Assembly: GCA_041494705.1 (NCBI GenBank)
Contig: JBGQBI010000003.1
Coordinates: forward strand, 30,001 to 62,000
Direction: 5' to 3'
Source: Candidatus Methanoperedens sp.
GTDB taxonomy: Archaea > Halobacteriota > Methanosarcinia > Methanosarcinales > Methanoperedenaceae
Length of the DNA stretch: 32,000 nucleotides
This document shows, piece after piece, positions 5,266 through 30,709 of the stretch. Within the stretch, counting starts at the first letter, position 1; each line of letters starts with the position of its first letter. The translations under genes and the position numbers were made by a program. Under the pieces are notes generated by a model. It searched no databases and was not told the origin of the DNA. It was given only the letters and a program-made list of their open reading frames with translations.

Positions 5266-5370
5266 GATTACCTTGTTATTTCAACCTGATTACCAGCAAT
5301 TTAATTGTAATTCCATCATTATCATGATTGTAATTATATTAACTTATACTATATTTTATTCCTTGTGGTA

Positions 5371-5518: not shown

Positions 5519-5620
5519 ATTTCTTTTGTTTAACTATATAAACAAGAGATGTGTAAATTGAATATATTAAATAAATCCGGTGATGTAATAAAAAAAATTA
5601 TGTAAGGAAGTGAAGCGGAG

Positions 5621-6424: not shown

Positions 6425-6788
6425 TTCTTAAACCTTGGATTATACACTCATCTCTCAGCACGGGATATAAAATAATGTTGTAAATTTGATTGTGTAGAGG
6501 CTTGTTTCAAAGCCTGTGGCCAGCTAAATGATAAAAGCTTTTCAAGAGAATAATCCATAGAATAATAGGATAGGATGGTGGGAGATTTGGTGCATCTATG
6601 AGCCTATAAAACATGCAATGCTTGAATCCTCAATAGATTACATGAAAAGAGGAAAGCAAGCCACGCATTTATAAGAGCACCCAAGCCGAGGGTGCATATT
6701 TTTATCGGTGAATGAATAAATATAAAAATTTTAAATTTTTTAAATTTGAAAATAATCGTAATAAATACATAAATGGAGGATGAATTAA

Positions 6789-12799: not shown

Positions 12800-13186
12800 T
12801 TAATCCTTTTTCAGATATATAACAAACATGGTATCATGTGGGACTGTGAAAACTTAGCGAAGGTGATTTAACCAGAGAGACGTCAAGAAGATTGAAAATC
12901 AAATAGAGAGGCGTAAACTTTATTTAATGATACGCTAAAATGCAGGATGGGTATATCGATGGAAGACAAAGTAGATGCAATAATAAAAGGGAAGGCTAAA
13001 CCAAAACTCTCATATTATATTAGCCCGCAATGGATAAAAATTGCATTAATAATATTTTTGCTATTTGTAACGTTAGAGGCGTTCGGGTTAGTGTGAAGGC
13101 AAAATCGTCATTGAGAAGGCATAAAAATATATGACAGAATGCTTGCGGGTTCTCACATAGCTACAAAACCAAAGCGAGCCTCAAAT

Positions 13187-17433: not shown

Positions 17434-17817
17434 ATGGCAACAATAGCGATATTGATAGGTTCTGAATCGGACAGGGGAATTGCAGAACGTTGTGCAAAAG
17501 TGCTGGAAACAGCCGCAGTTGATTATGAGATACGTGTCCTGTCGGCGCACAGGAATCCCGTGGAGCTTGAAGATTATATAAAAAAAAGTGATGCTAGGGT
17601 TTTCATAGCAATAGCGGGATTGGCTGCAGCCCTCCCCGGCGTAGTCGCCTCGCGGACAAAAAAGCCTGTCATCGGCGTACCTGTGAGTTCAAAGCTCGGA
17701 GGAATGGATGCCCTCTTATCCATAGTCCAGATGCCAAAGGGTGTGCCGGTTGCATGCGTGGGAATCGATAACGGTGAGAATGCTGCATACCTTGCCCTCC
17801 GGATACTGGGGATGTAA
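17434..17817 (+). CDS. purE: PurE-family protein (AIR carboxylase / N5-CAIR mutase fold), short form
   Basis: 127 aa with PurE motifs ([43 protein letters not shown]). It is shorter than typical PurE (about 160 aa), so the exact activity is uncertain. Confidence 0.8.
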
Positions 17818-17820
17818 AGT

Positions 17821-17962
17821 GAACTCATAAATTGAGACTGTGAACTGAACCCATAAGTTTAAACAATGAACCCATAAGCTTAAACTGAAGTAAGCATAGG
17901 TGATGTGAACTGAACCCCTAAGTTGATTCTGCGTGATGGGCTTATACCCATAAGTTTTGATT
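17821..17962. repeat. Cluster of about 5 degenerate direct repeats with core GAACCCATAAGYTT
   Basis: The copies are gaactcataaattgag (17821), gaacccataagtttaaac (17847), gaacccataagcttaaac (17868), gaacccctaagttgattc (17912) and tatacccataagttttgatt (about 17944). The longer unit tgtgaactgaaccc occurs twice (17840 and 17904). Embedded 8-bp palindromes are GTTTAAAC and TAAGCTTA. Confidence 0.5.
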
Positions 17963-17983
17963 GGTGACCTTTTTATAGACCTG

Positions 17984-18441
17984 CTATCTAAATACATTTA
18001 TATATTTATACAGACAATTGTCCCAAATGCTTTTCTGGCTTATAAGGTGCTCTTTGCATTTTGCAACACTATCTAAATCTTTATGATCCACTTTGATTGT
18101 TCTTGTTGCTGCAACATCAAATGGAATGGATTCTCCTGTCTGAATAATTTGAACAACAGGCTTTCCGATAACATGCCTAAATGCGAGTTCATAAAAAACA
18201 TTGGGGTTTGTTCCAGTTAGATCAGCAATTACTAATGGATATCAATTAGGTGTTGGATTATTTGGGATGTGATTATACCAGGCTCAGAAATTTTATCCGC
18301 ACGAATTGCTTCATAGCCGCACTCTTTCACAGCAGGCGCGATAATATAGTTTAATACCTGGTCAGATTGACGACGTTTCTCAGTACCTTCATCGCCAATT
18401 GGACCTATTACAAAACATATTTTGTTATCTCCTTGAGACAT
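17984..18441 (-). pseudogene. Frameshifted nucleoside 2-deoxyribosyltransferase-like (Rossmann-like, DrHyd/TIR-related) gene
   Basis: Frame A (track ORF 18232..18477) reads MSQGDNKICFVIGPIGDEGTEKRRQSDQVLNYIIAPAVKECGYEAIRADKISEPGIITSQIIQHLIDIH*. The family pattern continues in another frame from 18238: PLVIADLTGTNPNVFYELAFRHVIGKPVVQIIQTGESIPFDVAATRTIKVD..., ending at the stop at 17984-17986. The junction at about 18238-18241 (GATAT/CCATTAGTA) is consistent with a 1-nt indel. Confidence 0.55.
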
Positions 18442-18448
18442 TGCAAAG

Positions 18449-18673
18449 CTACTTAATTTCACATAAAATATTTCCACTGGTTTCTATACATATATCGTAT
18501 TTGTATGGAGTATAAGATGCGCTTATTTTTGGCTCTCGATTAATTATATAGGATTCTGTATTTTTCTCCAAGCGAAATTTTTCGAGATAACCTCCAGAAA
18601 TCAAATATCCATTTATAGCCGGGATATTGGAAATCATGCTCCCACTTATATAGATACCATATATGTATGGCAT
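18449..18673 (-). CDS. Hypothetical 74-aa ORF directly upstream of the frameshifted gene
   Basis: This is a track ORF only. Its stop is 7 nt before the MSQ start at 18441. I recognise no motif, and it could be a remnant of a degraded partner gene. Confidence 0.2.
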   Translation of the reverse strand: MPYIYGIYISGSMISNIPAINGYLISGGYLEKFRLEKNTESYIINREPKISASYTPYKYDICIETSGNILCEIK

Positions 18674-18752
18674 AAAATCTAAACGATAAACGGATGATGT
18701 AGATGTCTAATCTACAAGATGGTATCTGTAAGAAAAATGAACTAAAAAAGAG

Positions 18753-19394
18753 ATGGTTTTGCCAGGTATTTCAATACAGGCATTTCAATCGATTTTGAAA
18801 AAAGGAGTGATTAAGTTGAAGGAGCCGATTGAGAGGGTAACTATAGCCCCTTGCATGGGTATAGGCCAGACAGTAGCAGGAGTGACCCGGTTGGCAGCAT
18901 ACATCGTAAATGAAGAGCTGCTTCCAGACCAGACAATATTACTTTGTGTACCGGCGCTCATCGCGGGAGTTATCGAAGATATCGATATGGCAGAGGTATA
19001 CCCGACAATCGTTATAGATGGTTGCAGTGAAAAATGTGGAAGCCAGATATGTCATTTTTGCGGGATAAAGCCCGCTGCAAGGATATACGTACCGGAGATA
19101 ATACATGAAACCAGACTAAGCCCGGGACATACAAGACAGGAACTTGAAGAATCAGGCAAAAAGCTGGCACGCGTCGTAGCTGAAAGAGTGGCGATTATTG
19201 CAAAAGGCATACTTAATGACCCTGATTACGACTTCAAGGTACAGAAGATAAATACGCACGGTCATACTCATGACCCTGAAATCGAAAAGACTCTTGAATA
19301 TGGATGCTACGACGGGTTTTACAAGCCAAAAAGCATGCCTGAAATTAACCTAAAAGAGGGGGATAAGTGTGTTGCAAAAGTGTTGTGTCGCTGA
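18753..19394 (+). CDS. DGC-domain putative zinc-binding protein with a His/Cys-rich C-terminal extension
   Basis: The conserved Cys pattern and the name-giving motif are present (TIAPCMGIG, LLCVPAL, VIDGCSEKCGSQIC). The tail contains THGHTHD and several Cys. A better start may be the in-frame TTG at 18816, preceded by GGAG (18804-18807). Confidence 0.7.
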   Translation: MVLPGISIQAFQSILKKGVIKLKEPIERVTIAPCMGIGQTVAGVTRLAAYIVNEELLPDQTILLCVPALIAGVIEDIDMAEVYPTIVIDGCSEKCGSQICHFCGIKPAARIYVPEIIHETRLSPGHTRQELEESGKKLARVVAERVAIIAKGILNDPDYDFKVQKINTHGHTHDPEIEKTLEYGCYDGFYKPKSMPEINLKEGDKCVAKVLCR

Positions 19395-20061
19395 GTTTAT
19401 CGGGACATTTGTGCTGGTGTTCGCCGGGACCGGCGCCATAATTATCAATGCCTTGACCGGAGAAATAACCAGCATGGGCATTGCATTGACGTTCGGGTTC
19501 ACAGTTGCAATCCTGATTTATTGCTTGGGGAATGTTTCGGGCGCGCATTTGAATCCTGCAGTAACCGTTGCACTGACCCTGACAGGAAAACTCGAACCTA
19601 AAAAGACGCTGCCTTATATTGCATCCCAGTTTTTCGGAAGCATACTGGCGTCGCTAACATTGCTTTTTCTTTTCGGAAACGTCAGCAATCTTGGGGCGAC
19701 CCAGCCCAGATATGGCTGGCAGCAGTCCTTTGTACTGGAATTCATTTTATCTTTCATACTGATGTTCGTAATAATGGCTGTAATCATGCACAAGCACGGC
19801 ATCGGTATGTCTGCGGCGGCTATAGGGGCTGCTGTAGGACTGGATGCAATGTTCGGCGGACCGATTAGCGGTGCATCGATGAACCCGGCAAGGTCTCTTG
19901 GACCGGCTCTTGTTTCCGCAACATTCCAAAACCAATGGATTTATCTAATTGCTCCTCTGGGAGGCGCGATATTTGCGGCATTCCTGTACAAATTACTTTT
20001 AAAAGAACACGATATTGGATTATCTATTGAAGAAGCGGTTTCTTCAGAAGGGATGCCCTGA
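19369..20061 (+). CDS. MIP-family channel, NIP/AqpN-like
   Basis: 230 aa with six TM segments and two NPA boxes (SGAHLNPAVTVAL and GASMNPARSLGPALV). It overlaps the DGC gene, and its stop overlaps the next start (TGATG at 20059-20063). Confidence 0.9.
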   Translation: MLQKCCVAEFIGTFVLVFAGTGAIIINALTGEITSMGIALTFGFTVAILIYCLGNVSGAHLNPAVTVALTLTGKLEPKKTLPYIASQFFGSILASLTLLFLFGNVSNLGATQPRYGWQQSFVLEFILSFILMFVIMAVIMHKHGIGMSAAAIGAAVGLDAMFGGPISGASMNPARSLGPALVSATFQNQWIYLIAPLGGAIFAAFLYKLLLKEHDIGLSIEEAVSSEGMP

Positions 20062-21374
20062 TGACAGACGCAAAAAATATGGAGACAGGTCTTATAGTCT
20101 GTCAATGTAATGATAACAGTTACGTAAAGGATTTTGACCTAAATCAAGTTATAACCTTTGTCCAGGACAACCTGGAAGTTTCTTTTATAGGTATGCACCC
20201 GAGTTTATGCAGTCGTAAAATCGGCATAAACTACCTCAGCAGGCTCCTGGACAGGGACATTGAAAAACTTGTCGTATTGGCTTGTCATCCAAAAGCACAG
20301 AGATGGCTTTTTGAAGAAATCCTGCATAAAAAAAACCTGAACGGAAATTTTATCCCGATAAACTTTCATGGAGCGACAACCGGGGAAGTCATCTCCCAGC
20401 TTGAAAAGGTATTTCCCAGGAAATCAGAAAAGATCAACGAATGGTTCCCGGTTATTAATTACGAACGATGCCTGGGTCTAAAAGCCTGCGGGGCATGTTA
20501 TGATTATTGCATCTATGGCGTCTTCGGGATAAAAGAGGACGATAACGATGGCGTGATAGTTAAAAATCCATATAAATGCAAAGATAAATGTCCGGCCTGT
20601 GCCCGTCTGTGCCCTGTCCGTGCGATTATTTTCCCAAAGTCCTCCGACGGCTGGATAGCCGGTAAAGAGATACAAAATGCAGAAAAAACCGGACAAAACG
20701 CCCGGGAGATCACGCTTGAACAGGGAAGCACACCGCAAGTTGCAGATGCAGTTAAGAACGCAGGGACTATTTCATTTGATAAAGACATACCCGATGAATC
20801 GACCCGTATGTTTATCAGGGAGAAAGCACCTGATGCGGCAGAGCAATTAGGCGAAAAAGATGTGGAAAAATTCGCTATCGAACTTCTTAACCAGTGGGGT
20901 ATTAAAGAGGATTATCTGCGCTTTACAGTCGTTGAATTAAAAAATGAATCTCTAAAGCGGAAGTTCACAGAGACCCCTTATGAGCGCCGTGTAATAATAA
21001 TACCGCATTGTCTTCGCGATCAAATGCATTGTAAAGGAAAATATGAAGACGTGGGCGGGGGAGTAAAACTCATATGCGCAGAATGTGGTAGCAAGGAATG
21101 TAACATATTCCCGTTAAAAAAGGCGTCAGAGAAGTTAGGATATACCGTATTCGTAGCAGAAGGTTCAACTGTTGTCCTTAAATTGCTAACTGAAAAAAAG
21201 AAAGGAATAGCTTTCCTCGGTATCGGGTGTTTGGATTCGCTTTACAAATCAATACCAAAACTTGATGCATTCGGAATTAGCGCAAGAGGCGTCCCACTCC
21301 TAAAGTCCGGATGTAAAAATACCGTCGTTGAACTTGACAGGGCTTTAGAATCCATATTTCTTGAACCAAAATAA
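20061..21374 (+). CDS. Three-part fusion: HdrA/MvhD(FlpD)-like Cys-containing domain, 2x[4Fe-4S]-like ferredoxin, and DUF116
   Basis: 437 aa. The N-terminal part (GLIVCQCNDNSYVKDFDLNQV...SLCSRKIG...KLVVLACHPKAQRWLFEE) resembles the HdrA/MvhD-type segment. The middle part carries two Cys clusters (CLGLKACGACYDYC and CKDKCPACARLCP). The C-terminal part matches DUF116 as I remember it (RRVIIIPHCLRDQMHC, ICAECGSKEC, GYTVFVAEGST, AFLGIGCLDSL, GVPLLKSGCKNT). Confidence 0.65.
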   Translation: MTDAKNMETGLIVCQCNDNSYVKDFDLNQVITFVQDNLEVSFIGMHPSLCSRKIGINYLSRLLDRDIEKLVVLACHPKAQRWLFEEILHKKNLNGNFIPINFHGATTGEVISQLEKVFPRKSEKINEWFPVINYERCLGLKACGACYDYCIYGVFGIKEDDNDGVIVKNPYKCKDKCPACARLCPVRAIIFPKSSDGWIAGKEIQNAEKTGQNAREITLEQGSTPQVADAVKNAGTISFDKDIPDESTRMFIREKAPDAAEQLGEKDVEKFAIELLNQWGIKEDYLRFTVVELKNESLKRKFTETPYERRVIIIPHCLRDQMHCKGKYEDVGGGVKLICAECGSKECNIFPLKKASEKLGYTVFVAEGSTVVLKLLTEKKKGIAFLGIGCLDSLYKSIPKLDAFGISARGVPLLKSGCKNTVVELDRALESIFLEPK

Positions 21375-21382
21375 CCAGGCGG

Positions 21383-21832
21383 ATGCGTATGGAAGATAAA
21401 CAAATTTATGAATTCGGAAGAGACAAAGTTAAGGTGCCGGAATGGCTCAGATATACAACGTCCCATTTATGGGGGATTGAAAATGATGCAGTCCTTACGA
21501 TAGGGGTCTCTGATTTTTTCCTCAAGCTTGTTAAAGAAATTTATTTTATATCATATGATGTTGAGGTAGGCGATACCGTAAACAGAGGGGATTCATTCGG
21601 TTCTGTCGAAGGCAGCAAATCTGTAATGTATGTTAAATCTCCGGCGGAAGGAAGCGTTATAGAAATTAACGAAGAACTTTATGATGATCCGACTCCCCTC
21701 AATAAAAACCCCTATGGAGATGACGGGTGGCTGGTAAAAATCAAACAATCGGTTCCAGCCAATTTATTTGGCCCGAAAAGGTACATGCAGGTGCTTCAGG
21801 TAGCTGTTGATGAAATGGAGAAAAAACATTAA
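21383..21832 (+). CDS. GcvH-like lipoyl-carrier protein (orphan; no gcvT/gcvP nearby)
   Basis: 149 aa with GcvH-like blocks (LRYTTSHLWGIENDAVLTIGVSDF, GDSFGSVEGSKSVMYVKSPAEGSVIEINEEL, NPYGDDGWLVKIK). The lipoyl-Lys equivalent of the ESVKA motif is retained as EGSKS (Lys79, codon 21617-21619). Confidence 0.8.
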   Translation: MRMEDKQIYEFGRDKVKVPEWLRYTTSHLWGIENDAVLTIGVSDFFLKLVKEIYFISYDVEVGDTVNRGDSFGSVEGSKSVMYVKSPAEGSVIEINEELYDDPTPLNKNPYGDDGWLVKIKQSVPANLFGPKRYMQVLQVAVDEMEKKH

Positions 21833-21850
21833 TAAGAGAGTGATTGCAAA

Positions 21851-23032
21851 ATGTCAAAAGAAAAAATAATAGAACTTAACCGAACAGTTTTCAGAAAAAC
21901 CAAGAAATACCAGGCAGCTTTATTTCTTATACTGGGATTATTTACTGTAATAGCTGTTGGCATCACGGCAGCTTCGGCTGCACAAATGCCATTGAAAACG
22001 GCTTCACACATTGAAAGTGATAAAGCCCTTCATGGCTCCGGTATTTCCCAGGATAAAATAGATACAAGCATAGACAAAGCATTATCATTTTTAAAGGAAC
22101 ACCAATTACCTTCAGGTGAATTTCCAATGAACGGGTCACTGAGCCCGGAAATGACTAACAGTGCGTATGAATTGGAGGTTTTTGGCTCTACATTCGTGCT
22201 GCATGCGCTCGGTCTTGTAAAACCTGATCATGCTGTCAATGAAATGAAGAATAAAACCGGAGCGTTCCTACTTGCAAATAAAGAAGATCCTGGAGTATGG
22301 AGATACTGGGGGAAAAACTCCAACATCCCACCGGACATGGACGATACATCTACAATAGTTGCCTCCTTAAAAGAAAACGGGATACCTGTTGAAGAGAGCG
22401 GCTTGGATTATGCGTTTAACTATAGAGCTCCCGATGGAGTATTCTATACGTTTATGAATGAAGAAAAATGGATGAACATTTCGGACATATATTATCCATA
22501 TTATAAAATGAACGACATAGACCCGGCAGTCAATGCAAATATGGCATATGCCCTCTCTCTAATTCGTAAACCCGTGCCTGAAGTGAGTGTTTTCCTGAAT
22601 GGTTACATAGAGAACAAATCTTTCACGGAGCGCACTATATATTATCATATTCCATATTCGCAGCTCTATATGTTTACACGGGCATATGCTGACGGACATG
22701 TGAGCGACTTAAAACCGTCAATGCCTGTGGTAAGAAAATATCTTTTGAGCATGCAGAAAGAGGACGGAAGCTGGGGAAATGAACTTAACACAAGCCTGGC
22801 TGCTATCTCGTTAATGAATACGGGGTATAAAGGTAAAGCGTTAGACAAAGCCATCAACCACATATTAAAGACCCAGAGGGATGATGGTAGCTGGCCTGAG
22901 CGATCGTTTTTCGTCGGGATTATGACATACTGGGGTTCCGAAGAGGTCTCTACGGCGTTCTCAATCGAAGCATTAAGCAAATATAATAAACTGACCGATG
23001 AAAACAAAGAATCGGATGGAGTGAATAGATGA
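21851..23032 (+). CDS. Secreted or membrane-anchored alpha/alpha-toroid protein resembling the catalytic region of class II terpene cyclases (squalene-hopene cyclase-like)
   Basis: 393 aa. The N-terminal TM or signal segment is AALFLILGLFTVIAVGITAASAAQ. The motif IPPDMDDTSTIVASL (DMDDT at 22334-22348) resembles the SHC YPDVDDTAVV acid motif. Three QW-like repeats are present (FLKEHQLPSGEF, YLLSMQKEDGSWG, ILKTQRDDGSWP). Confidence 0.65.
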   Translation: MSKEKIIELNRTVFRKTKKYQAALFLILGLFTVIAVGITAASAAQMPLKTASHIESDKALHGSGISQDKIDTSIDKALSFLKEHQLPSGEFPMNGSLSPEMTNSAYELEVFGSTFVLHALGLVKPDHAVNEMKNKTGAFLLANKEDPGVWRYWGKNSNIPPDMDDTSTIVASLKENGIPVEESGLDYAFNYRAPDGVFYTFMNEEKWMNISDIYYPYYKMNDIDPAVNANMAYALSLIRKPVPEVSVFLNGYIENKSFTERTIYYHIPYSQLYMFTRAYADGHVSDLKPSMPVVRKYLLSMQKEDGSWGNELNTSLAAISLMNTGYKGKALDKAINHILKTQRDDGSWPERSFFVGIMTYWGSEEVSTAFSIEALSKYNKLTDENKESDGVNR

Positions 23033-23931
23033 ATAATATTATAAAGGGTAAAAAGTTCCTTTTCTTTGGTGGAAAAGGGGGCGTTGGAAAGACCACAATG
23101 GCGTCTTCCACTGCGGTATGGCTGGCGGAACATGGTTATAACACGTTAATAGTAGCTACGGATCCTACGGTAAGTCTGTCTGCAATTTTCGAACAGGAAA
23201 TCGGAGAGACGGAGGTGACAAAAATCAGGGAAATTAAAAATCTGTGCGGGCTTAATATAAATCCTAAGAAAGCATCCGGTGTTTTCCAGGCAAGGTTGAA
23301 TGAGGTTGTGGAGCAAATCACAGGCATGTTCGGGAAGGACGTGATGAATACCCCCTGCGCTGAAGAGATGGCCGCTTTCGACCAGTTTGTAAAATACCTG
23401 AATGACGGCGAAAATGATGTCGTAGTATTTGATACGGCTCCGACAGGCCATACGCTCAGGGAACTGGCCATGCCTTTTGATTGGGCTAATTATATTTCAA
23501 ACCAGATTAAAAACAGGAACGAGCTAAGCAAAGCACTGGGTATCAAAGGAGATGGGAATGCAATAGAGACCCTCAAAACCGAACAGAAAAAATACGAAAA
23601 TGCAATAAAAACGTTAGCCAATACAGGGACTACTTTATTTACCCTGGTAATGCTTGCCGAAAATCTGCCTATCGAAGAGACAGCAAGGGCGATAGAGAAC
23701 TTAAGTCAGCTAAATATCAAAGTCCAGGCTTTAATAATAAACGAAATAATACCAAACGAAGTCCTGAAAGGAAACTGGTTTTTAGAGAGACGAAGGTCAA
23801 CGCAGGACAAATACCTGGGAATCATTGATAAAAGATTTAATGGCTTACCCAAAAAAGAGGTGCCTCTCTTTGAGACCGATATTACGGGCATCGAGAACAT
23901 GAGAAAAATCGGGAAAATACTTTATGGGTAA
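23029..23931 (+). CDS. arsA: ArsA/GET3-family anion-transporting ATPase, single-domain form
   Basis: 300 aa with a deviant Walker A (FFGGKGGVGKTT), the signature DTAPTGHTLR and the segment STDP-like IVATDP. It has an ATGA overlap with the upstream gene (23029-23032). Confidence 0.88.
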   Translation: MNNIIKGKKFLFFGGKGGVGKTTMASSTAVWLAEHGYNTLIVATDPTVSLSAIFEQEIGETEVTKIREIKNLCGLNINPKKASGVFQARLNEVVEQITGMFGKDVMNTPCAEEMAAFDQFVKYLNDGENDVVVFDTAPTGHTLRELAMPFDWANYISNQIKNRNELSKALGIKGDGNAIETLKTEQKKYENAIKTLANTGTTLFTLVMLAENLPIEETARAIENLSQLNIKVQALIINEIIPNEVLKGNWFLERRRSTQDKYLGIIDKRFNGLPKKEVPLFETDITGIENMRKIGKILYG

Positions 23932-24265
23932 TATTATGGAACACACGATAGTACTATTCCAGATACCCGGTTGCTGCGCAGCAACAAGATGGCTTGCAAA
24001 CAGGAATTATTCCAAGACGCTAAAAGATTTATGCAGGGAAGCAGGCGTTGTATTTAAGGAAGTCGATCCGCTAACCACCCAGGATATCCTGATAAAAATG
24101 ATGCAGGAGCAGCGGCCCGATATCTGGGAGAAAGTCGAGAAGCACGGGTTACCTGTGATAATAGAGTCATTTCCGGTCGTTGTTATGGACGGCAAGATCA
24201 TATCCTTGGGTGATATCAATGAGATAGAGTTGAAACAACAAGTACTCAGCGCTGTAAAAGGATGA
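23924..24265 (+). CDS. ArsD-like thioredoxin-fold protein (vicinal Cys pair)
   Basis: A start at 23936 would give MEHTIVLFQIPGCCAAT..., which parallels E. coli ArsD MKTLMVFDPAMCCSTGVC as I recall it. The later GLPVII...VVVMDGKIISLG parallels ArsD GLPLLLLDGETVMAG. The third ArsD Cys (C18) is not conserved. Confidence 0.55.
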   Translation: MGNIMEHTIVLFQIPGCCAATRWLANRNYSKTLKDLCREAGVVFKEVDPLTTQDILIKMMQEQRPDIWEKVEKHGLPVIIESFPVVVMDGKIISLGDINEIELKQQVLSAVKG

Positions 24266-24271
24266 ACAGGG

Positions 24272-25159
24272 ATGGGTAATACTGAAAAAATGGTAATACT
24301 GTTTATCCTGTTATTATCCTCTAATTTATTTTTAAATAACGCAAGGTCGGAGGGGGATAATCTTTTGGCACAGGCACAGAATTCCTCCCAGCTATCCGGG
24401 TGGGTTTTTACACCAATCTATATCGATGGCATGAGCGCAAATTCAAGCGGGTTCAAAATCCTTTTAAGACCATACGAGCGCAGGATAACTGAAGGACAGT
24501 TCAATCCGAGTATTGTTGATGTTAAATTCGGAATACTCAATAATAAGGATATTATTTTTACCGATACCCTTGAGCAGGTTACACTGTACCAGCCGACTGA
24601 ACTGAGTGGCAGATGGAAAACAGTCTTAAAAGAGGGTATGAATTATACGGCTTTTGCACAGGTTTTCATGTATGAAAACGGAAAACAGCCAACATACATT
24701 TCTACCTCTTACTCAGGCTTTACCTCTGTAAACGATGCAAAAATTATAAATGTCGATGCTGATGGGCTCGGCTCGAGCATAACAGTAAAAAGCATATCTA
24801 TGGTTCCCCTGGATGCCAGAGTGTCTTTCGTGTTAAAACAAAATGATAAGATCCTGGAGGAAAAAGAGATCGACGCACCTGTAATCACGTCTAATGATGC
24901 GGACGAAACAATCGAAGTTCTCTGGAACAGGAATCTTGATAACGGGAAATATATTGTAGAAACAAAAATAGTTGACAAGAAAAATGAAATCATAGACCGC
25001 TACGATAAAGTTTTTGAAGTCAAGAGAATTGCTGTCAATACATCAGTTACAGCCGAATCGACCGGTGATGTAATGAAAATGCCCGGTTTCCAGGGTATCG
25101 AGATAATCGTTTTGACTTTAATAATTAACCTGTGGCGCCGTTTAAGGTTAGGATTATGA
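24272..25159 (+). CDS. Secreted surface protein with a putative PGF-CTERM archaeosortase sorting signal
   Basis: 295 aa with an N-terminal signal peptide (MVILFILLLSSNLFLNNARS). The C-terminus MPGFQGIEIIVLTLIINLWRRLRLGL has the PGF tripeptide (25082-25090), a hydrophobic helix and a basic tail. It starts 6 nt after the upstream stop and has an ATGA overlap with the permease. Confidence 0.55.
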   Translation: MGNTEKMVILFILLLSSNLFLNNARSEGDNLLAQAQNSSQLSGWVFTPIYIDGMSANSSGFKILLRPYERRITEGQFNPSIVDVKFGILNNKDIIFTDTLEQVTLYQPTELSGRWKTVLKEGMNYTAFAQVFMYENGKQPTYISTSYSGFTSVNDAKIINVDADGLGSSITVKSISMVPLDARVSFVLKQNDKILEEKEIDAPVITSNDADETIEVLWNRNLDNGKYIVETKIVDKKNEIIDRYDKVFEVKRIAVNTSVTAESTGDVMKMPGFQGIEIIVLTLIINLWRRLRLGL

Positions 25160-26340
25160 GCATCGGTTCAAACCTCCGAACGGCTTTTTTTTTCGCAAAG
25201 AAGGATATCATCAAGGATAAAAAAATATTCTTATTTATATTCATTGCCATATCCTTTGGGACCGCAAACGCTATGATCATAAACGGGATAACCGATGGAC
25301 TGGTACTTGATTTAGTAGATAATACTATCAACTCAAATACGGGTCATATAACAATATATCCCGACCAGGACAAGCAATATATTGAAGGAGTGGGCGTCAA
25401 AGAGATGAAGCTCAAAAGCATGAGCGATATAGTCGCTTACTCATCACGTTTACAGGTTGGCGGAGTGATCAAAAATAAAGGGATGGCAAAATCGGTGAGC
25501 ATAATTGCTTTAGACCCCGCCAACGAGGAGAAGATATCCACTATATTTGAGAAGATCGAATCAGGTCAAGCCCTAAGTTCCAGGGATCGCAATGATATAA
25601 TTATCTCATTCAGGATACAGGAAGACATGGGTATCAATACCGGAGATGAGGTCATCCTGACTTTTGAAAATGGGAACAGCAAACGCTATAATATCAAAGG
25701 TATCATCCATACGGGCGTTCCTGCCGTGGATGCAAATACGGTTTATATCCCCATAGAAGAGGCAAAACAGCAACTGGGCATGCAGGATAAAGCGTCTGTG
25801 ATCCTTGTCAGGTTAACTGATAAAAATAACGCACAAAGATATAAACCGATTATTAAACAGGAACTTGAAGTATCGAATGTGAGGACGTGGAGAGAAGAGG
25901 TTGAATATACGCTCAGTTCCGCCGCAACAATGAACCAGCTTGGGAACACCATCGTATTAATTAGCCTAATTGCAGCGAATGTTTCCGTTGCAGTAATAAT
26001 TTATGTGAGCATTGTCAATAAAAGGAGACAGATAGGAATCATGAAAGCTATCGGGGTAAAAAATAGCCTTATTTTTACCATCTTTTTAATTGAGGCGATG
26101 TTTTTCGGGATCGCGGGAGTTATAGGGGGAGATATGCTTGGCTATGCAGTCATTAGATACCTTGAGAACCATCCTTTTTACGATCCGCTGTCTAGAGAAT
26201 ATCTGGGCGCAAGGTTCGGAATGAACCTTTTATTCTCTGCCTCGATGACGTCCTTCGGTACTTCTGTGCTCGCGGGAGTTTACCCTGCCATAAATGCAGG
26301 AAAAACAAACATTATCCAGGCAATATATGGAGGAAGATAA
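25156..26340 (+). CDS. FtsX/MacB-type ABC transporter permease
   Basis: It has an N-terminal TM, a large extracytoplasmic domain and three C-terminal TMs with an FtsX-like core (RRQIGIMKAIGVKNSLIFTIFLIEA). The likely start is the ATG at 25156, which overlaps the upstream stop; the track ORF begins at 25132. Confidence 0.85.
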   Translation: MSIGSNLRTAFFFAKKDIIKDKKIFLFIFIAISFGTANAMIINGITDGLVLDLVDNTINSNTGHITIYPDQDKQYIEGVGVKEMKLKSMSDIVAYSSRLQVGGVIKNKGMAKSVSIIALDPANEEKISTIFEKIESGQALSSRDRNDIIISFRIQEDMGINTGDEVILTFENGNSKRYNIKGIIHTGVPAVDANTVYIPIEEAKQQLGMQDKASVILVRLTDKNNAQRYKPIIKQELEVSNVRTWREEVEYTLSSAATMNQLGNTIVLISLIAANVSVAVIIYVSIVNKRRQIGIMKAIGVKNSLIFTIFLIEAMFFGIAGVIGGDMLGYAVIRYLENHPFYDPLSREYLGARFGMNLLFSASMTSFGTSVLAGVYPAINAGKTNIIQAIYGGR

Positions 26341-26342
26341 TT

Positions 26343-27008
26343 TTGATAGAAACAAGAGAACTCACAAAGACATACCTGATGGGAAAAGTTACGGTCTATG
26401 CGCTCGATGCCATAAATATTTCGATTGAGCTAGGGGAGTTCTTGGCAGTGATGGGATCATCAGGCAGCGGTAAAACAACGTTTTTAAACATGATAGGTAT
26501 GCTGGATACGCCGTCATCCGGCGAGATATTGTTGGACGGGGTGGATGCTACCAAACTTAGCGAGAGTGCAAAGGCAGCATTTCGATTGAATAGATTAGGC
26601 TATATCTTCCAGTTTTTCAGCCTGTTTGACCAACTGAGTGCCATTGAGAACGTGGCTTTCCCTATGATGATGGCAGGAAATCAATCCGAACCTTCAAAAA
26701 AGGCAAAAGAACTTCTTGAGGTTGTCGGTCTGGGTCACCGCATTCACCATAAGCCGTCAGAGTTATCCGGGGGTCAGCAGCAACGTGTAGCCATTGCAAG
26801 AGCACTTGCCAACAACCCGAAGATATTACTGGCGGATGAACCCACAGGTAATCTTGACAGGAAATCCTCTAATGAATTAGTAGAATTATTCAAACAATTG
26901 AACAAAGAACACGGGCTAACGATCGTACTTGTAACCCACGACCAGGAGGTAGGCGGAAAGGCTGATAGAATAATCAAATTCAGAGATGGAAAAATAGAAA
27001 ACCCATGA
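26343..27008 (+). CDS. ABC transporter ATP-binding protein (MacB/LolD-type)
   Basis: It has Walker A (GSSGSGKTT), the signature LSGGQQQRVAIARAL and Walker B (ILLADEPTGNLD). The TTG start is 8 nt after GGAGGA (26329-26334). Confidence 0.92.
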   Translation: MIETRELTKTYLMGKVTVYALDAINISIELGEFLAVMGSSGSGKTTFLNMIGMLDTPSSGEILLDGVDATKLSESAKAAFRLNRLGYIFQFFSLFDQLSAIENVAFPMMMAGNQSEPSKKAKELLEVVGLGHRIHHKPSELSGGQQQRVAIARALANNPKILLADEPTGNLDRKSSNELVELFKQLNKEHGLTIVLVTHDQEVGGKADRIIKFRDGKIENP

Positions 27009-27030
27009 GGAGTACCGTTAAAATATAGAC

Positions 27031-27678
27031 CTATTCAATAATCCGATGTAATATTTTATCCTCGGCTTTACGCAGGTGTTCAAGCAAGGTTGCCTTATTT
27101 ATTCCAATTTTATCTGCAAGTTTTTGAGGGTTTATTTTCCTTGGATAACTAAAATACCCGCTTAAGTACGCCTGCTTGAGCACTTCTTTTTGTTTTACTG
27201 TGAGTGACTCCAGCATATTCTTAGTAGCAGGATGGTATTTTTCAAATGACATAACTTCTATTTTCCAGTCCTCTTTGGCTTTCTTTACAATATTGTACAA
27301 TTCGTCGCGCTTGCCTACAAGGCTAAATCGGCAACCATGTCTATCAACAATTATGGGAAAGTCTAACTTGAGTTCGAAATTTTCAATAAAACCCGAAATC
27401 TTATCCACTATTATTTTACCTTTAATAAGGCAGATATATTTCTGGTTGGAGTGGCTTATTACATTCAGTTCAAGAATGTCGTTTTTCTTAATCCAGTCCT
27501 CTATATCAACGCCATCCTGGAATGTAATTTCACAAATTTCTGTGAATACTAAAGGTGTAAGGTTAAAGATTGAAATTATCTCAAGCCTCTCAACCATGTC
27601 GCTTATAAAAGGCATACAACAGCACACATGGGTCCCTTCGTCCATATTAATCGTCATCTTCCACATAAAAAGAACCAA
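27031..27678 (-). CDS. Transcription regulator with a C-terminal Bat-type HTH_10 domain
   Basis: The C-terminus LTVKQKEVLKQAYLSGYFSYPRKINPQKLADKIGINKATLLEHLRKAEDKIL is the classical HTH_10 (bacterio-opsin activator-like) pattern. I do not recognise the N-terminal 150 aa. Confidence 0.75.
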   Translation of the reverse strand: MVLFMWKMTINMDEGTHVCCCMPFISDMVERLEIISIFNLTPLVFTEICEITFQDGVDIEDWIKKNDILELNVISHSNQKYICLIKGKIIVDKISGFIENFELKLDFPIIVDRHGCRFSLVGKRDELYNIVKKAKEDWKIEVMSFEKYHPATKNMLESLTVKQKEVLKQAYLSGYFSYPRKINPQKLADKIGINKATLLEHLRKAEDKILHRIIE

Positions 27679-27874: not shown

Positions 27875-28309
27875 TTATCTTGCTACCAGAACAGTACACT
27901 TAGCTTTCCTGACCACAGCCTGGGCTACGCTCCCGAGTTCAGGGTTAATCTCTGTTTCTCCCTCGCCGCCCATGACAATGGTATGAACCTCGTATTTCTC
28001 AGCCGCATCCAGTATTGCCTGCGCTATAATCTCCGCCCTTGCTCCCATCTTTGGCATTCGCTGCATGCTGACCCCGACCAGCAGTTTCTGGATAGCTACG
28101 CCCATTTCAGCGCCCATTTCTAATACACGTTCCAGGACTTCCTCGCCCCGCGCCACGAGTTCCTCGCGCTCGGAATCCTTGCGGGCTACGGCTACGTAGA
28201 TAGCCGCCATGCGGATATTATACGATTTTGCGATTTTCATTGCTGCAATCTCGGCTTTTCTTGCGCACGCCGTGCCGTCGGTAGCCAGCAGAATCTCATA
28301 CCGTGTCAT
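27875..28309 (-). CDS. Universal stress protein (UspA family)
   Basis: 144 aa with ILLATDGTACARKA at the N-terminus and IVMGGEGETEINPELGSVAQAVVRKAKCTVLV at the C-terminus. Its start overlaps the NuoB-like stop (ATGA at 28306-28309). Confidence 0.85.
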   Translation of the reverse strand: MTRYEILLATDGTACARKAEIAAMKIAKSYNIRMAAIYVAVARKDSEREELVARGEEVLERVLEMGAEMGVAIQKLLVGVSMQRMPKMGARAEIIAQAILDAAEKYEVHTIVMGGEGETEINPELGSVAQAVVRKAKCTVLVAR

Positions 28310-28794
28310 GGATTGACCTCTGTTTTTTTCATTTTCTGCGGAAGCTTATCAAGTGCAACCATGATGCCGAATATGACTGCCTGCGGCCTGGGCGGGCATC
28401 CGGGTATGTACACGTCCACAGGGATGTATTTATCAACACCGCCTCCGCTTGCGTAAGTATCCCCGAATATGCCGCCGTTACACGCGCATGAACCCATTGC
28501 AACCACAAGTTTAGGGGATGGCGTGGCATTATAGGTCTTAAGGAGCGCAAGTTCCATGTTCCGCGTAACAGGACCTGTTACTAACAGCATATCCGCATGG
28601 CGCGGGGAAGCCACTATGTGGATACCGAATCGCTCTATATCATAGATGGGATTTGACAGCGCATTTACCTCAACTTCACAGGCGTTGCATGAACCCGCAT
28701 CTACCTCGCGTATGTGCAGCGAGCGCCCGAAGATTTTCTTTATCTTGTCATTGAGGCGTTCTCCCATTATCTCGACTTCATCCTCGACTGTCAT
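28306..28794 (-). CDS. NuoB/HycG/HyfI-like small subunit with [4Fe-4S] ligands retained
   Basis: Conserved motifs are GSCNACEVE, ASPRHADMLLVTGPVT, MGSCACNGG and IPGCPPRP. The start is set at the ATG 28794..28792, which overlaps the ferredoxin stop (ATGA). The longer track ORF (to 28896) would overlap the upstream gene by about 100 nt. Confidence 0.88.
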   Translation of the reverse strand: MTVEDEVEIMGERLNDKIKKIFGRSLHIREVDAGSCNACEVEVNALSNPIYDIERFGIHIVASPRHADMLLVTGPVTRNMELALLKTYNATPSPKLVVAMGSCACNGGIFGDTYASGGGVDKYIPVDVYIPGCPPRPQAVIFGIMVALDKLPQKMKKTEVNP

Positions 28795-29129
28795 ATCTTC
28801 CCCCGAATACTGGTAAGAAGGTCTTCTTTTGTTTTTGACGCAAGTTCGTATTCCTGTGCGAGCTTGATTGCGCCTTCGGGGCATACCTCCTCGCATCTTC
28901 CGCAGAATATGCAGCCGCAGTATGATAATGTAAGGATTTTTTCACTCCTCTCTTCGGTCAGCCATATCACGCCGGGCGGGCATACTGTTACGCATTTACC
29001 GCAGTAATTACACTTATCTGATAAAAGCTCCGGTTTCCCGCGAAATCCAAGAGGTGCAGCGTCCGGAATTTGCGGATATTTTGTGGTTTGCGAGCCGGTT
29101 TTAAGGGTTTTTTTCAGGATATCAAGCAT
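28791..29129 (-). CDS. 2x[4Fe-4S] ferredoxin subunit (HycF/HyfH/NuoI-like)
   Basis: 112 aa with two CxxCxxCxxxCP motifs (CNYCGKCVTVCP and CIFCGRCEEVCP). Confidence 0.85.
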   Translation of the reverse strand: MLDILKKTLKTGSQTTKYPQIPDAAPLGFRGKPELLSDKCNYCGKCVTVCPPGVIWLTEERSEKILTLSYCGCIFCGRCEEVCPEGAIKLAQEYELASKTKEDLLTSIRGKI

Positions 29130-29137
29130 TTTTTCAC

Positions 29138-30709
29138 CTACATATCATTGCCGGAATATGATAAGCTCAGGCTTTTATTGATAATCGGGAAGTCGGGAAC
29201 GATATTATCAAGCACGGCATACTCAATCGCGAGCCAGTTGCAAAACGATGGGTCCCTGACCTTGCATCTAACTATCCTGTTGTTTTCTATCATAACCCAG
29301 TAAAGCGTTTCTCCCCTCGGGGCTTCCGTGTATCCCAGTGCATAACCATCCGGAATTTCTCCGACATTAATCATAATATTGCCATCGGGAAGCGACCAGA
29401 GCGCCTGTTCTATCAATCCTATGGATTCGCATATTTCATCGGCTCGCACAAGCGTTCGTGCGTTCACATCGCCCGCTTTTTGCACCGGCACCTTGAAATT
29501 GAATTCAGAATAGGCTGCATACGGATGGTCGCGCCGCATATCCCTGTCGATACCAGAAGCGCGGGCTATCGGTCCCACGACATGCAATCCTTTTGCAATA
29601 TCATTGTAAATCCTTCCTGTGGTTTCAATCCTGTCAACAAGGGACGGTATTGCCATGAGGTACTCAATCAGCTCCCTGAAATCATGCTGTATCTCGGACA
29701 ACCTGAGTAATATCCCATCCTTTTTATCACCAATGTCGCGGCGCACGCCTCCGATTGTGTTCATCCCGCGAAGGAGCCTGCTTCCTGTTACTTTTTCGTT
29801 TAGCTGCAATATTTCTTCCTTAAGCCTGTTGGCATGAGCCGCGCCCATGACAAAAGCCACATCGGTTGCAATCCCGGCGATATCTCCGAGATGATTATAA
29901 ACGCGTTCAAGTTCGAGAAGAACCACCCGTATATATTTTGCCCGCGCCGGAATATCAACACCCGCTATTCTCTCAACAGCCTGGCAGAAAGCTATCGCAT
30001 GCGCTGCGGAGTTGTCGCCAGATATCCTTTCAGCAAGGAATACGGCTTTATCGAGGGATATGTTCTCAAACAGTTTTTCCACGCCTTTATGCGTATAGAA
30101 ATGCCGTATCTCAAGATTAATAATGGGCTCGCCTGCAACGCTGAACCTGAAATGTCCGGGTTCTATTACACCTGCATGCACGGGTCCTACCGGAATTTCA
30201 TAGACGCCTTCACCCTCAACGCGCCTGTACACATATTCACCCTCAACGCGCGACGGTTTTGTCCTTATATCAAAATCCTTCCGCAGCGGGTAAACCCCAT
30301 CTGGCCAGTCCTCAAAATGCACAAGCCGCCTCGGGTCTGGATGACCGACAGGAACCAGGCCGAACATATCCTGTATCTCTCGCTCATACCAGTTGGCTGC
30401 TGCAATCTTATGTGTAATGGAATTGTATCTGGGGGATTTTTCATCGACATTTATTTTTATTATAATGAACGCATCGCCTTTGTCGATGGAAAACACATAA
30501 TGGACTTTGAAACAGCCTTCCTTTTTTCTCTCATCGGTTGCGAAAATTGAAACAAGCGGTATATCCAGGTGGTGGTAAATATGGTCGCAAATCTTCACAT
30601 TTGCTTCTTTTTTTACGGTGAGATATGTTTCATTACGCGAGGTTATTTCATCAAGAATAGTATTCCCAAATTCCTTTTTTAAAGCCTCTATGAATTCCCT
30701 GTTCATCAC
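29138..30709 (-). CDS. Fused NuoC-NuoD / HycE-HyfG-like large subunit lacking all four NiFe-binding cysteines (Ehr-type)
   Basis: 523 aa with an N-terminal NuoC-like part (NWYEREIQDMFGLVPVGHPD). The large-subunit part has RISGDNSAAH (29999-30028) where hydrogenases have RxCGxCxxxH. The C-terminus is SLSLSYSGNDM (29141-29173) where hydrogenases have DPCxxCxxR/H. Confidence 0.88.
   Translation of the reverse strand: MMNREFIEALKKEFGNTILDEITSRNETYLTVKKEANVKICDHIYHHLDIPLVSIFATDERKKEGCFKVHYVFSIDKGDAFIIIKINVDEKSPRYNSITHKIAAANWYEREIQDMFGLVPVGHPDPRRLVHFEDWPDGVYPLRKDFDIRTKPSRVEGEYVYRRVEGEGVYEIPVGPVHAGVIEPGHFRFSVAGEPIINLEIRHFYTHKGVEKLFENISLDKAVFLAERISGDNSAAHAIAFCQAVERIAGVDIPARAKYIRVVLLELERVYNHLGDIAGIATDVAFVMGAAHANRLKEEILQLNEKVTGSRLLRGMNTIGGVRRDIGDKKDGILLRLSEIQHDFRELIEYLMAIPSLVDRIETTGRIYNDIAKGLHVVGPIARASGIDRDMRRDHPYAAYSEFNFKVPVQKAGDVNARTLVRADEICESIGLIEQALWSLPDGNIMINVGEIPDGYALGYTEAPRGETLYWVMIENNRIVRCKVRDPSFCNWLAIEYAVLDNIVPDFPIINKSLSLSYSGNDM

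Follow-up and report, generated by a model that had tools for sequence, protein, structure and literature searches.

In a 32,000-nucleotide stretch of the genome of Candidatus Methanoperedens sp. (contig JBGQBI010000003.1, positions 30,001 to 62,000; "the window" means this whole stretch), ten genes follow one another on the plus strand. This ten-gene unit is very probably a recent, strain-specific fusion of two adjacent modules, each of them conserved on its own. Module A (p1 to p5, 18753-23032) encodes a DGC protein, a channel, an Fe–S/DUF116 protein, a GcvH-like protein and a toroid protein, while module B (p6 to p10, 23029-27008) encodes an ArsA-like ATPase, a small protein with a vicinal Cys–Cys pair, a surface protein and an ABC transporter (Table 1; the genes are numbered in their order in the array, and labels such as L009 designate the genomic and metagenomic loci that were compared). 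Judging from the sequences, two themes are physically interwoven here, the chemistry of thiophilic metal(loid)s and dithiols and a membrane-associated isoprenoid chemistry, and each of them is well supported. We tentatively favour the idea that the two modules form an island which would combine the handling of soft metalloids and dithiols with isoprenoid work at the outer face of the membrane.

An earlier note, made from the letters of this DNA and a list of its open reading frames, had described one coupled ten-gene operon and proposed that it is an envelope-spanning thiol or metalloid handling system, in which ArsA and ArsD would feed an ABC exporter instead of ArsB. The array is as the note described it: listing and reading the open reading frames recovers the ten head-to-tail genes at the same coordinates, with the same nine junctions, which span overlaps of 1 to 26 nt and gaps of 2 to 18 nt. 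A contig from a separate assembly (L001) is 100% identical to positions 17748-27576 of the window and has the same gene calls, including the 4-nt overlap between p5 and p6. Profile searches bear out most of the domain calls (DGC, MIP, HdrA/ferredoxin/DUF116, GCV_H, ArsA_ATPase, FtsX and ABC), whereas p7 and p8 match no family. We also agree that ArsB/Acr3, ArsC, ArsR and ArsM are missing from the array.

The coupling of the two halves is not ancestral. The nearest loci are those of the uncultured archaeon LFW-280_3_1 (96%), of M. nitroreducens Mnv1 (91%) and of BLZ2 (80%). In blastn, the window aligns collinearly with L009, its nearest relative (about 92% nucleotide identity), with the sole exception of a 2.4-kb segment of L009 in whose place the window has 56 bp. 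The open reading frames of this segment encode HisI-like, NUDIX and LOG-family proteins and a divergent HTH_10 regulator. Its reduction to 56 bp shows that the ATGA overlap between p5 and p6 is the product of a deletion. A tblastn search with the window proteins locates an HTH_10 regulator on the opposite strand, where it either separates the toroid gene from the ArsA-like gene or stands immediately 5' of the latter, in L009-L014 and L091, which are the other Methanoperedens loci that cover the 5' side of this gene. The regulator thus separates two units in these loci, and one metagenome-assembled genome (MAG), bin_184_1, has the two modules on separate contigs (L014 and L084).

In L010, the identity to the window varies along the locus, from 90-92% for the proteins from DGC to GcvH to 56% for the toroid protein, 88-91% for ArsA and p7, and 40-63% from p8 to the ABC transporter, which indicates that sub-blocks recombine. 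The two modules are neighbours in the window, L009, L010, L013 and L091 (five genomes) and on the partial contig L012, despite a 40-60% divergence of several of the proteins. The earlier note had made its proposal depend on the co-conservation of the genes in other genomes, and this co-conservation is observed at the level of the modules: the DGC, MIP, DUF116, toroid and GcvH-like proteins recur with a MacB-type ABC transporter in a lineage whose G+C content is 35%, and the ArsA-like protein, p7, p8, FtsX and the ABC ATPase recur across Methanoperedens.

The ATPase of module B, p6, matches the ArsA_ATPase family (PF02374, 256 bits), and both its P-loop (GKGGVGKT) and its DTAPTGHT motif are present in the alignment with 1f48. 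The solved structures nearest to p6 are those of the archaeal Get3 homologues of M. jannaschii (3ug6, E 4e-54) and M. thermautotrophicus (3zq6, E 8e-51), which have the same single-domain ArsA/Get3 fold and score best, and that of E. coli ArsA. The protein passes the shared TRC40/GET3/ArsA subfamily model and scores below the equivalog cut-offs of two-domain ArsA (TIGR04291, 197 bits vs 650; NF041417, 234 vs 800). It had been read as an ArsA that keeps the equivalent of C113; the alignment retains this cysteine, but p6 is not a two-domain ArsA, which would have two homologous halves and about 580 residues, and it does not keep C172. Cys110, which lies in TPCAEEMAAFDQF, is aligned to C113 as well as to C422 of E. 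coli ArsA, and the position of C172 is occupied by Ala. The segment TPCAEEMAAFDQF is invariant in 13/13 members of the subfamily, and its cysteine is the only invariant cysteine of p6. A homodimer of p6 would supply two of the three metalloid-binding cysteine positions of ArsA.

According to a genome scan, the p6 subfamily (52-66% identity) occurs in Bathyarchaeia, Methanomethyliaceae, Thorarchaeota, Methanomassiliicoccales and a few bacteria. A survey published in 2010 reported that none of the three ArsA cysteines is conserved among the single-domain homologues (PMC2963123). Unlike the proteins of that survey, the p6 subfamily appears as a distinct single-domain ArsA group with a C113/C422-type cysteine and its own ArsD-like partner. 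Compared to the archaeal Get3 homologues, p6 lacks the CxxC zinc motif (KGNWFLERRR where 3ug6 has C..FC), is shorter by 24-49 residues, the helical region that binds clients being interrupted by gaps, keeps the ArsA-type cysteine and has a Cys–Cys protein of predicted thioredoxin fold as its neighbour. Neither ArsB nor Acr3 was seen near the ATPase in the window cluster, L009-L014, L091 or L015-L032 (selected neighbours were scanned with Pfam, and no search with an ArsB or Acr3 query was made), so that at the Methanoperedens loci the p6 ATPase has no known membrane partner.

The small protein p7 is restricted to few lineages: an exhaustive phmmer search among 1.84 billion representatives found its relatives in one other 50%-identity cluster only. 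The vicinal cysteine pair is invariant in 7 orthologues. Outside Methanoperedens, 12 of 17 loci have a Cys–Cys protein directly 3' of the ArsA-like gene, nearly always of about 110 residues and encoded by an overlapping gene, with the cysteine pair near the N-terminus. Three of these ArsA-adjacent proteins were tested; two score above the Thioredoxin_3 cut-off, the third just below, and two of the three match ArsD weakly (14-17 bits). The hhalign comparison of p7 with this family extends from end to end, with the Cys pair on the Cys pair (67% probability, E 5e-5). On the other hand, p7 does not match the Pfam ArsD model (PF06953, cut-off 27 bits) even at E <= 1, while the canonical ArsD of L037 scores 103 bits, and it lacks a cysteine at the +5 position (Cys18 of ArsD). 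The AF2 model, obtained from a two-sequence alignment, has a pLDDT of 44, and its order of strands and helices is compatible with a thioredoxin fold; the search of solved structures by sequence gave nothing useful for p7. Of the ArsD-like protein with a vicinal pair that had been proposed, the pair and the likeness therefore stand, on the basis of hhalign and of gene position, and ArsD proper does not. It is reasonable to call p7 "ArsD-like", as a probable divergent and lineage-restricted member of the ArsD-like, thioredoxin-fold proteins that stand behind the p6 subfamily.

The association of these parts with ars genes, which was implied when they were called ars-type, is indeed found elsewhere, for the p6 subfamily near ArsR and ArsC, for GcvH-like and DGC proteins in Chloroflexi ars islands (see below), and in the likeness of the channel to NIPs. 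Outside Methanoperedens, a PadR-like regulator that carries an FCCD motif recurs near the ArsA-like/Cys–Cys pair in 9 loci, a flavin reductase in 6 and an ArsC of the low-molecular-weight phosphatase type in 4; ArsR is a recurrent neighbour too. ArsR and ArsC are both near the pair in L019, L022 and L023, and ArsC alone in L024, some of these loci being from Bathyarchaeia; a P-type ATPase was found near the pair once, in L020. The pair is a variant of known ars parts. It resembles ArsD–ArsA of the arsRDABC operon (E. coli plasmid R773) in having an ArsA-family ATPase with the P-loop, DTAPTGHT and the C113/C422-position cysteine, next to a small vicinal-Cys protein of predicted thioredoxin-like layout. 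It differs in that p6 is a single 300-residue domain rather than a fused A1–A2 pseudodimer, and in the order of the genes, the ATPase coming before the Cys–Cys protein, which is the reverse of arsD–arsA; moreover, the membrane neighbours are here a MacB-type ABC transporter and a NIP-like channel. In the uncultured archaeon of L015, an HgcA-like protein is encoded 1 kb from the pair (11913-12959, minus strand), with a CdhD-type domain containing NVWCAAGK followed by transmembrane helices.

In Methanoperedens, the ArsA-like/p7 pair is always beside FtsX/ABC, with a p8-type surface protein in between except in L014, where the adjacency persists through an inversion. The permease p9 has transmembrane segments at 32-50 and from 274 onward, with a large extracellular loop between the first and the second; it is duplicated in most relatives, where the copies match MacB_PCD. 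The assignment to a MacB-type ABC transporter is upheld by this loop and by the LolD-like ATPase, all the scores being below the equivalog cut-offs. The pair p9/p10 thus resembles the MacB/LolCDE (type VII) transporters, whose membrane-fusion protein has a YknX-like counterpart in L086, and differs from them in being archaeal, in its pairing with a C-terminally anchored surface protein and a cyclase ectodomain, and in scoring below the LolC/E/D and MacB equivalog cut-offs. MacB/LolCDE-type transporters act at the outer face of the membrane, which makes the export of a substrate fed by ArsA and ArsD to this transporter mechanistically unlikely; on this family knowledge, we rejected the docking of ArsA onto the ABC exporter.

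The surface protein p8 has no family match in profile scans. It had been called a PGF-CTERM protein; its surface features hold (a signal-like segment, and PGF, a transmembrane segment and RR seen by eye), whereas the PGF_CTERM model TIGR04126 does not detect its tail. The tail of the L010 orthologue scores 18 bits with PGF_CTERM, for a cut-off of 24.5, and 28 with Heimdall-CTERM, for a cut-off of 24. In L010 (M. nitroreducens Mnv1), the orthologues of p7 and p8 are separated by an inserted gene for a 503-residue radical SAM protein (11175-12686); radical SAM genes are also present 3' of the MIP gene in L084, and alongside DUF116 in Planctomycetes loci.

The array is followed by a convergent HTH_10 regulator, a paralogue of the one that was deleted between p5 and p6. 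Seven full-length copies of the HTH_10 regulators, taken from six loci, all keep a vicinal Cys–Cys pair and three further cysteines.

In module A, the channel p2 was expected to be NIP/AqpN-like, and this is confirmed by the MIP profile, the two NPA motifs and its nearest solved relatives, which are NIPs: rice NIP2;1/Lsi1 comes first (E 3e-38; top entries 7cjs and 7nl4), as judged by sequence similarity and not by phylogeny. Inspection of the NIP2;1 alignment by eye gives F/A/A/R as the aromatic/arginine (ar/R) filter. The solutes conducted by NIPs are As(OH)3, Sb(OH)3, B(OH)3, Si(OH)4 and glycerol (10.1101/351064). Like AqpS in the ars operon of Sinorhizobium meliloti, and in line with bacterial AqpN and plant NIPs, p2 is a NIP-like MIP amid ars-type parts; unlike AqpS, it has no adjacent ArsC and is coupled to DGC (to CobW in relatives), then to the Fe–S/DUF116 and cyclase genes, and its permeability is a prediction. 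The protein starts with MLQKCCVAEF (window 19369-19400), that is, with a vicinal cysteine pair at the cytoplasmic N-terminus, which is absent from the orthologues of BLZ2 and L086.

The GcvH-like protein p4 was proposed to be an orphan that retains the lipoyl lysine, and we reach the same conclusion: it matches PF01597, its lysine aligns with the lipoyl-Lys of the pea H-protein (lipoylation itself is predicted), and the window contains no glycine-cleavage genes. Its score with the GcvH equivalog TIGR00527 is 81 bits, for a cut-off of 116. In p3, the DUF116 domain (PF01976) scores 102 bits, for a cut-off of 25, over residues 273-429; the search by sequence found no solved structure for DUF116, and nothing useful for DGC. 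The two halves of p3 are separate in a metagenome locus similar in type to loci named Thermoguttaceae, where the counterpart of the N-terminal half is a Fer4 protein and that of the C-terminal half is a DUF116–polyprenyl-synthase fusion. A GcvH-like protein outside glycine cleavage, next to an Hdr-like Fe–S protein, is reminiscent of the sHdr–LbpA pathway of sulfur oxidation, as are the LplA-type ligases and the radical SAM enzyme near relatives (L085). However, there are here no HdrB/C subunits with CCG domains and no DsrE/TusA carriers, and the partner is the DUF116 fusion.

A scan of metagenomes with the DGC alignment returned two loci only. A DGC-based search identified the lineage of 35% G+C (L086 and L087), which has the DGC protein (63% identity), MIP (50%), the DUF116 fusion (39%) and the GcvH-like protein (45%), plus a cytoplasmic toroid protein with prenyltransferase repeats. 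The opposite strand carries two FtsX genes, an ABC gene, a membrane-fusion protein gene and a PadR regulator, which is 38-44% identical to the PadR-like regulators found beside ArsA/Cys–Cys pairs. Other homologues of p1 (52-63% identity, including L086, where the gene is beside MIP, DUF116 and GcvH) are next to GcvH and lipoate ligases (L085) or to an ABC importer and a CVC-type ArsR (L089). In L085 (4486-9856), a MAG of Firmicutes, two GcvH-like proteins together with two LplA-type lipoate ligases flank DGC; the neighbourhood also encodes a radical SAM enzyme of the B12-binding kind, an ATP-grasp enzyme, a methyltransferase and an MFS transporter, and the whole resembles a biosynthetic cluster built around a lipoyl carrier.

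Canonical ars islands provide a further link between module A and arsenic. A block encoding a GcvH-like protein and two DGC proteins, with OsmC in nine cases, is co-directional with ArsR, canonical ArsD (103 bits) and ArsA in 10 of 49 Chloroflexi loci, a count that is conditional on the presence of ArsA, since all 49 loci were fetched through two-domain ArsA. The block was located by tblastn with the L037 proteins, which were verified against Pfam, in L037 (4483-12309), L048, L051, L052, L061, L062, L066, L067, L070 and L074. It stands upstream of ArsR, ArsD and the two-domain ArsA; a Thioredoxin_3 gene is often close, and in some loci ArsC lies beyond. The GcvH-like proteins of these islands are 48-94% identical to one another, so that several lineages are involved.

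The last protein of module A, p5, gives only weak SHC and TED matches in sequence profiles. The AF2 model, based on an alignment of 38 sequences, is an alpha/alpha barrel (pLDDT 87.8, pTM 0.84), and the top 40 Foldseek matches of this model are all class II cyclases (drimenol and drimenyl-diphosphate synthases, MstE and monodomain SHC, with E down to 1e-14 and a TM-score of 0.66). The profile of the p5 family matches the cyclase domain of the drimenol synthase AsDMS (E 5e-29), D162-M-D164-D165-T166 being aligned to DLDTT; the entry of the AsDMS mutant D333N marks the catalytic aspartate that is aligned with the DxD of p5, and D162 and D164 are invariant in the 38 homologues. The N-terminus of p5 is rich in Lys and Arg and is followed by one transmembrane segment, at 22-40; as there is in addition no cysteine, the domain is predicted to be extracellular. 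On these models and alignments, p5 is homologous to class II terpene cyclases, has kept the DxDD motif intact and faces outward from its membrane anchor; its cyclase activity is predicted. The secreted SHC-like toroid that had been suggested is thus borne out in its toroid and cyclase likeness (AF2, Foldseek), and its location is to be restated as an N-terminal membrane anchor with the domain outside. In comparison with drimenyl-diphosphate/drimenol synthase, AstC and MstE, the DxD(D/T)T motif and the barrel are shared, whereas p5 is archaeal, membrane-anchored and encoded beside a channel and a MacB-type ABC transporter.

The genomic neighbours of p5 and DUF116 point to isoprenoids. A long form of module A, of the BLZ2 type (L013, L084 and L091), encodes, beside UbiA, a polyprenyl synthase, a GGR-like flavoprotein, Fer4/DUF116, a prenyltransferase-repeat protein, ThiS, a pyridoxal-phosphate enzyme (PALP), CobW, MIP and the cyclase, and continues with the HTH_10 regulator, then module B. 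Planctomycetes loci have SHC/Prenyltrans proteins next to DUF116, which is fused to a polyprenyl synthase or lies beside one, and the N-terminal Fe–S half of p3 corresponds there to a gene of its own nearby. In a Bipolaricaulota isolate, DUF116 shares a predicted terpenoid gene cluster with IspH, SHC and polyprenyl synthase (10.1101/2025.11.21.689855). In L082 (5721-9278), a locus of archaeal type, a fusion of an alkaline phosphatase with a cyclase (740 residues) precedes another cyclase paralogue, and both adjoin two UbiA genes and FtsX/ABC. This fusion is analogous to the phosphatase–cyclase drimenol synthases, but its phosphatase is of a type that is typically extracytoplasmic. In Cupriavidus (L090, 6001-8983), a distant homologue of p5 (28% identity) is encoded directly 3' of a 2693-residue RHS/YD-repeat protein, and is followed by an acyltransferase and a cytochrome P450. 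The window itself contains a FilR1-type regulator and a UbiA prenyltransferase 11 kb upstream of the array (5621-7730); the same families flank the long form in L084 and L091, and we rejected orthology with these flanks and treat the genes as paralogues because they are only 31-35% identical.

The island that we tentatively favour could work as follows. A p7-type Cys–Cys protein would capture a thiophilic metalloid, of the As(III) or Sb(III) type, and pass it to the p6 ATPase dimer, and the HTH_10 regulators, with their own Cys–Cys pair, may sense the same ligand. The NIP-like p2 would let the neutral hydroxide, of the As(OH)3 type, cross the membrane. Lipoylated p4 and the DGC protein p1 may constitute a dithiol buffer or relay, which the ferredoxin/HdrA-like Fe–S–DUF116 protein p3 would keep reduced. 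The p5 cyclase, p8 and the MacB/LolCDE-type transporter most likely operate on the outer side of the membrane, where an isoprenoid lipid or else a component with a lipid anchor would be their target, and they are probably not pumping the metalloid across the membrane. We infer the ligand, each of the transfer steps and any physical link between the two modules. The metalloid interpretation of the earlier note is therefore partly supported, by the ars-type associations and the co-conservation of the modules, and it loses the single ancestral operon and the feeding of the ABC transporter; nor does it give a full account of the locus, for it leaves the isoprenoid links of the toroid protein and DUF116 unexplained.

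Several points weigh against metalloid handling. Only one of the three metalloid-binding cysteine positions of ArsA is retained in p6; p7 fails the Pfam ArsD model, lacks Cys18 and has an uninformative structure prediction; and there is no ArsB, Acr3, ArsC or ArsM in or adjoining any Methanoperedens locus. In the L086 lineage, module A occurs without ArsA or p7 beside it. The OsmC of the Chloroflexi block fits a lipoyl-dependent peroxidase equally well. A terpene cyclase homologue with an intact catalytic motif, the isoprenoid genes of the long form and the association of DUF116 with polyprenyl synthase in Planctomycetes and Bipolaricaulota are not explained by metalloids, and all the evidence is genomic.

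In a reading nearly as likely as the one we favour, if taken by itself still somewhat doubtful, the locus would serve the biosynthesis, remodelling and export of terpenoids or ether lipids, and module A would be the reduced form of a specialised-isoprenoid cluster. The Fe–S/DUF116 and toroid enzymes would process a polyprenyl chain, which p5 would cyclise at the outer face (class II cyclases work without a cofactor, so that the reaction could take place extracellularly), the GcvH-like and DGC proteins would be carrier or redox cofactors, the MIP channel would serve glycerol or another small neutral solute, and the ABC transporter with p8 would extract or place the lipid; the ArsA-like/Cys–Cys pair would be a functionally separate or loosely coupled neighbour. 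The fold of p5 and its invariant DxD on D333 of AsDMS, the long form, the phosphatase–cyclase fusion with UbiA and FtsX/ABC in L082, the DUF116 clusters of the two bacterial phyla and the P450 near the Cupriavidus homologue all argue for it. However, module A of the window and the minimal core of L086 both lack polyprenyl synthase, UbiA and GGR, the upstream UbiA/FilR1 genes being mere paralogues, and this reading explains neither the GcvH-like/DGC block of canonical ars islands nor the ArsA/ArsD-like pair beside module A in five Methanoperedens genomes and L012; to our knowledge, no cyclic terpenoid is known from these archaea. It may also be that the two chemistries are a single one, in an archaeal system of a new kind at the envelope, where a thiophilic element or a sulfur group held on lipoyl or Cys–Cys carriers would, for example, be combined with a polyprenyl lipid, or serve to modify it, a lipid that the extracellular cyclase cyclises and the MacB-type transporter places; we regard this as unlikely.

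A defence against thiol or peroxide stress, in an anaerobe without the usual dihydrolipoamide dehydrogenase route, is a little less probable still. Lipoylated p4, reduced via the Fe–S/DUF116 and DGC proteins, would feed thiol peroxidases or disulfide repair, and p2 would be a peroxide channel. OsmC/Ohr-family peroxidases are reduced by lipoyl groups, and OsmC is directly 3' of GcvH-DGC-DGC in the nine Chloroflexi loci, with the Thioredoxin_3 gene close; the lipoate ligases around DGC in Firmicutes, the likeness of p3 to HdrA modules and a universal stress protein gene at 27875-28309 are consistent with this. On the contrary, neither the window cluster nor L086 contains a peroxidase gene, the permeability of p2 to peroxide is hypothetical, and the cyclase, the ABC transporter and the ArsA-like/Cys–Cys pair remain unexplained. 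We give as little credit to the absence of any joint function, in which the modules, and maybe the sub-blocks, would be neighbours by descent in one genus, joined by a neutral deletion. The fusion is indeed strain-specific, three unrelated housekeeping genes stand between the modules in L009, bin_184_1 splits the modules over contigs, and the mosaic identities of L010 reveal recombination; but the adjacency of the modules in the window and five other loci in spite of divergence, the related PadR regulators that accompany module A in L086 and ArsA/Cys–Cys pairs elsewhere, and the independent co-occurrence of GcvH/DGC with ArsA in Chloroflexi all speak for a connection. Last, p6 could be a targeting factor of the Get3 type that delivers tail-anchored or C-terminally anchored proteins such as p8, the other genes being devoted to envelope biogenesis. 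The solved relatives of p6, the shared subfamily model and the C-terminal transmembrane segment of p8 agree with this proposal, which is nevertheless very unlikely: the missing zinc motif and the Cys–Cys partner led us to reject it, the shortened client-binding helices and the ArsA-type cysteine go in the same direction, and the signal-like segment at the N-terminus of p8 suggests a Sec substrate and not a tail-anchored client.

In the searchable literature, we found no description of module A, of module B, of the GcvH–DGC block in ars islands or of the association of DUF116 with polyprenyl synthases and toroid proteins. Likewise, nothing relevant was found on GcvH in ars operons, on arsA in Methanoperedens or on LbpA with GGR, and no description of DGC in ars operons, the matches to this last query being dominated by diguanylate cyclase. 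The GcvH-like and DGC genes are candidate ars accessory genes, and a role of the lipoyl dithiol in binding or relaying arsenite lends itself to direct tests. That DUF116 keeps company with polyprenyl synthases and toroid enzymes across three phyla gives a lead on the function of this domain, and an outward-facing cyclase homologue with an intact motif in an archaeon is a lead on archaeal terpenoid chemistry. If the joint system described above were real, it would provide a first function for DUF116, DGC and the GcvH-like proteins that are not involved in glycine cleavage, and an active extracellular class II terpene cyclase in a methane-oxidising archaeon. In Methanoperedens, methane oxidation is coupled to nitrate, metal and metalloid reduction, so that the handling of arsenic-type toxicants would be environmentally relevant.

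Table 1. Positions in the window of the genes of the array, their junctions, the deletion scar and the flanking features
Feature	Position	Strand	Description
p1	18753-19394	+	DGC protein, Cys-rich (9 Cys), overlaps the channel gene; PF08859, 49 bits
p2	19369-20061	+	NIP/AqpN-like MIP channel, two NPA motifs (NPAVT, NPARS); PF00230, 190 bits
p3	20061-21374	+	Cytoplasmic Fe–S protein, 19 Cys; HdrA/MvhD-like N-terminus (weak), 2x[4Fe-4S] ferredoxin region, C-terminal DUF116
p4	21383-21832	+	GcvH-like lipoyl-carrier protein; PF01597, 85 bits
p5	21851-23032	+	Class II terpene cyclase homologue (predicted activity), N-terminal membrane anchor; motif D162-M-D164-D165-T166; no Cys
p6	23029-23931	+	ArsA/Get3-type ATPase, single domain, 300 residues; P-loop, DTAPTGHT, invariant TPCAEEMAAFDQF
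p7	23924-24265	+	113 residues, vicinal Cys pair C17/C18; ArsD-like by profile-profile similarity and conserved position
p8	24272-25159	+	Secreted surface protein; N-terminal signal-like segment; C-terminal PGF, transmembrane segment and RR by eye
p9	25156-26340	+	FtsX/LolC/MacB-type permease; PF02687; lolCE model 101 bits, residues 19-393
p10	26343-27008	+	LolD/MacB-type ABC ATPase; PF00005, 121 bits; LolD model 250 bits, below cut-off
HTH_10 regulator	27031-27678	-	Convergent; N-terminal CCC motif; PF04967
p1/p2 junction	19369/19394		26-nt overlap
p2/p3 junction	20061		TGATG, 1-nt overlap
p3/p4 junction	21374/21383		Gap
p4/p5 junction	21832/21851		Gap
p5/p6 junction	23029-23032		ATGA
p6/p7 junction	23924/23931		8-nt overlap
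p7/p8 junction	24265/24272		Gap
p8/p9 junction	25156-25159		ATGA, with the ATG start as called in L001; upstream GTG at 25132 in the list of open reading frames
p9/p10 junction	26340/26343		Gap
Deletion scar	22994-23049		56 bp where L009 has 4580-6959 (2.4 kb); blastn of the window against L009 and L010
Non-coding region 5' of the array	18478-18752	+	TATA-like TTATATAG at 18646-18653, read from the sequence

The TATA-like element upstream of p1 is a putative promoter element, identified by reading rather than with an archaeal promoter model. Beyond the universal stress protein gene, three genes on the minus strand (28306-30709) look by eye as if they encoded subunits of a membrane-bound, complex-I-related [NiFe] hydrogenase: one product is NuoB-like, one is a 2x[4Fe-4S] protein, and one is a large subunit of the fused NuoC/D type. 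Upstream of the cluster, the minus strand encodes a KaiC-like ATPase (3439-4881), a DUF2298 membrane protein (10655-12799) and a fusion of a HerA-like ATPase with MarR (13187-14764), which are apparently unrelated to the array.

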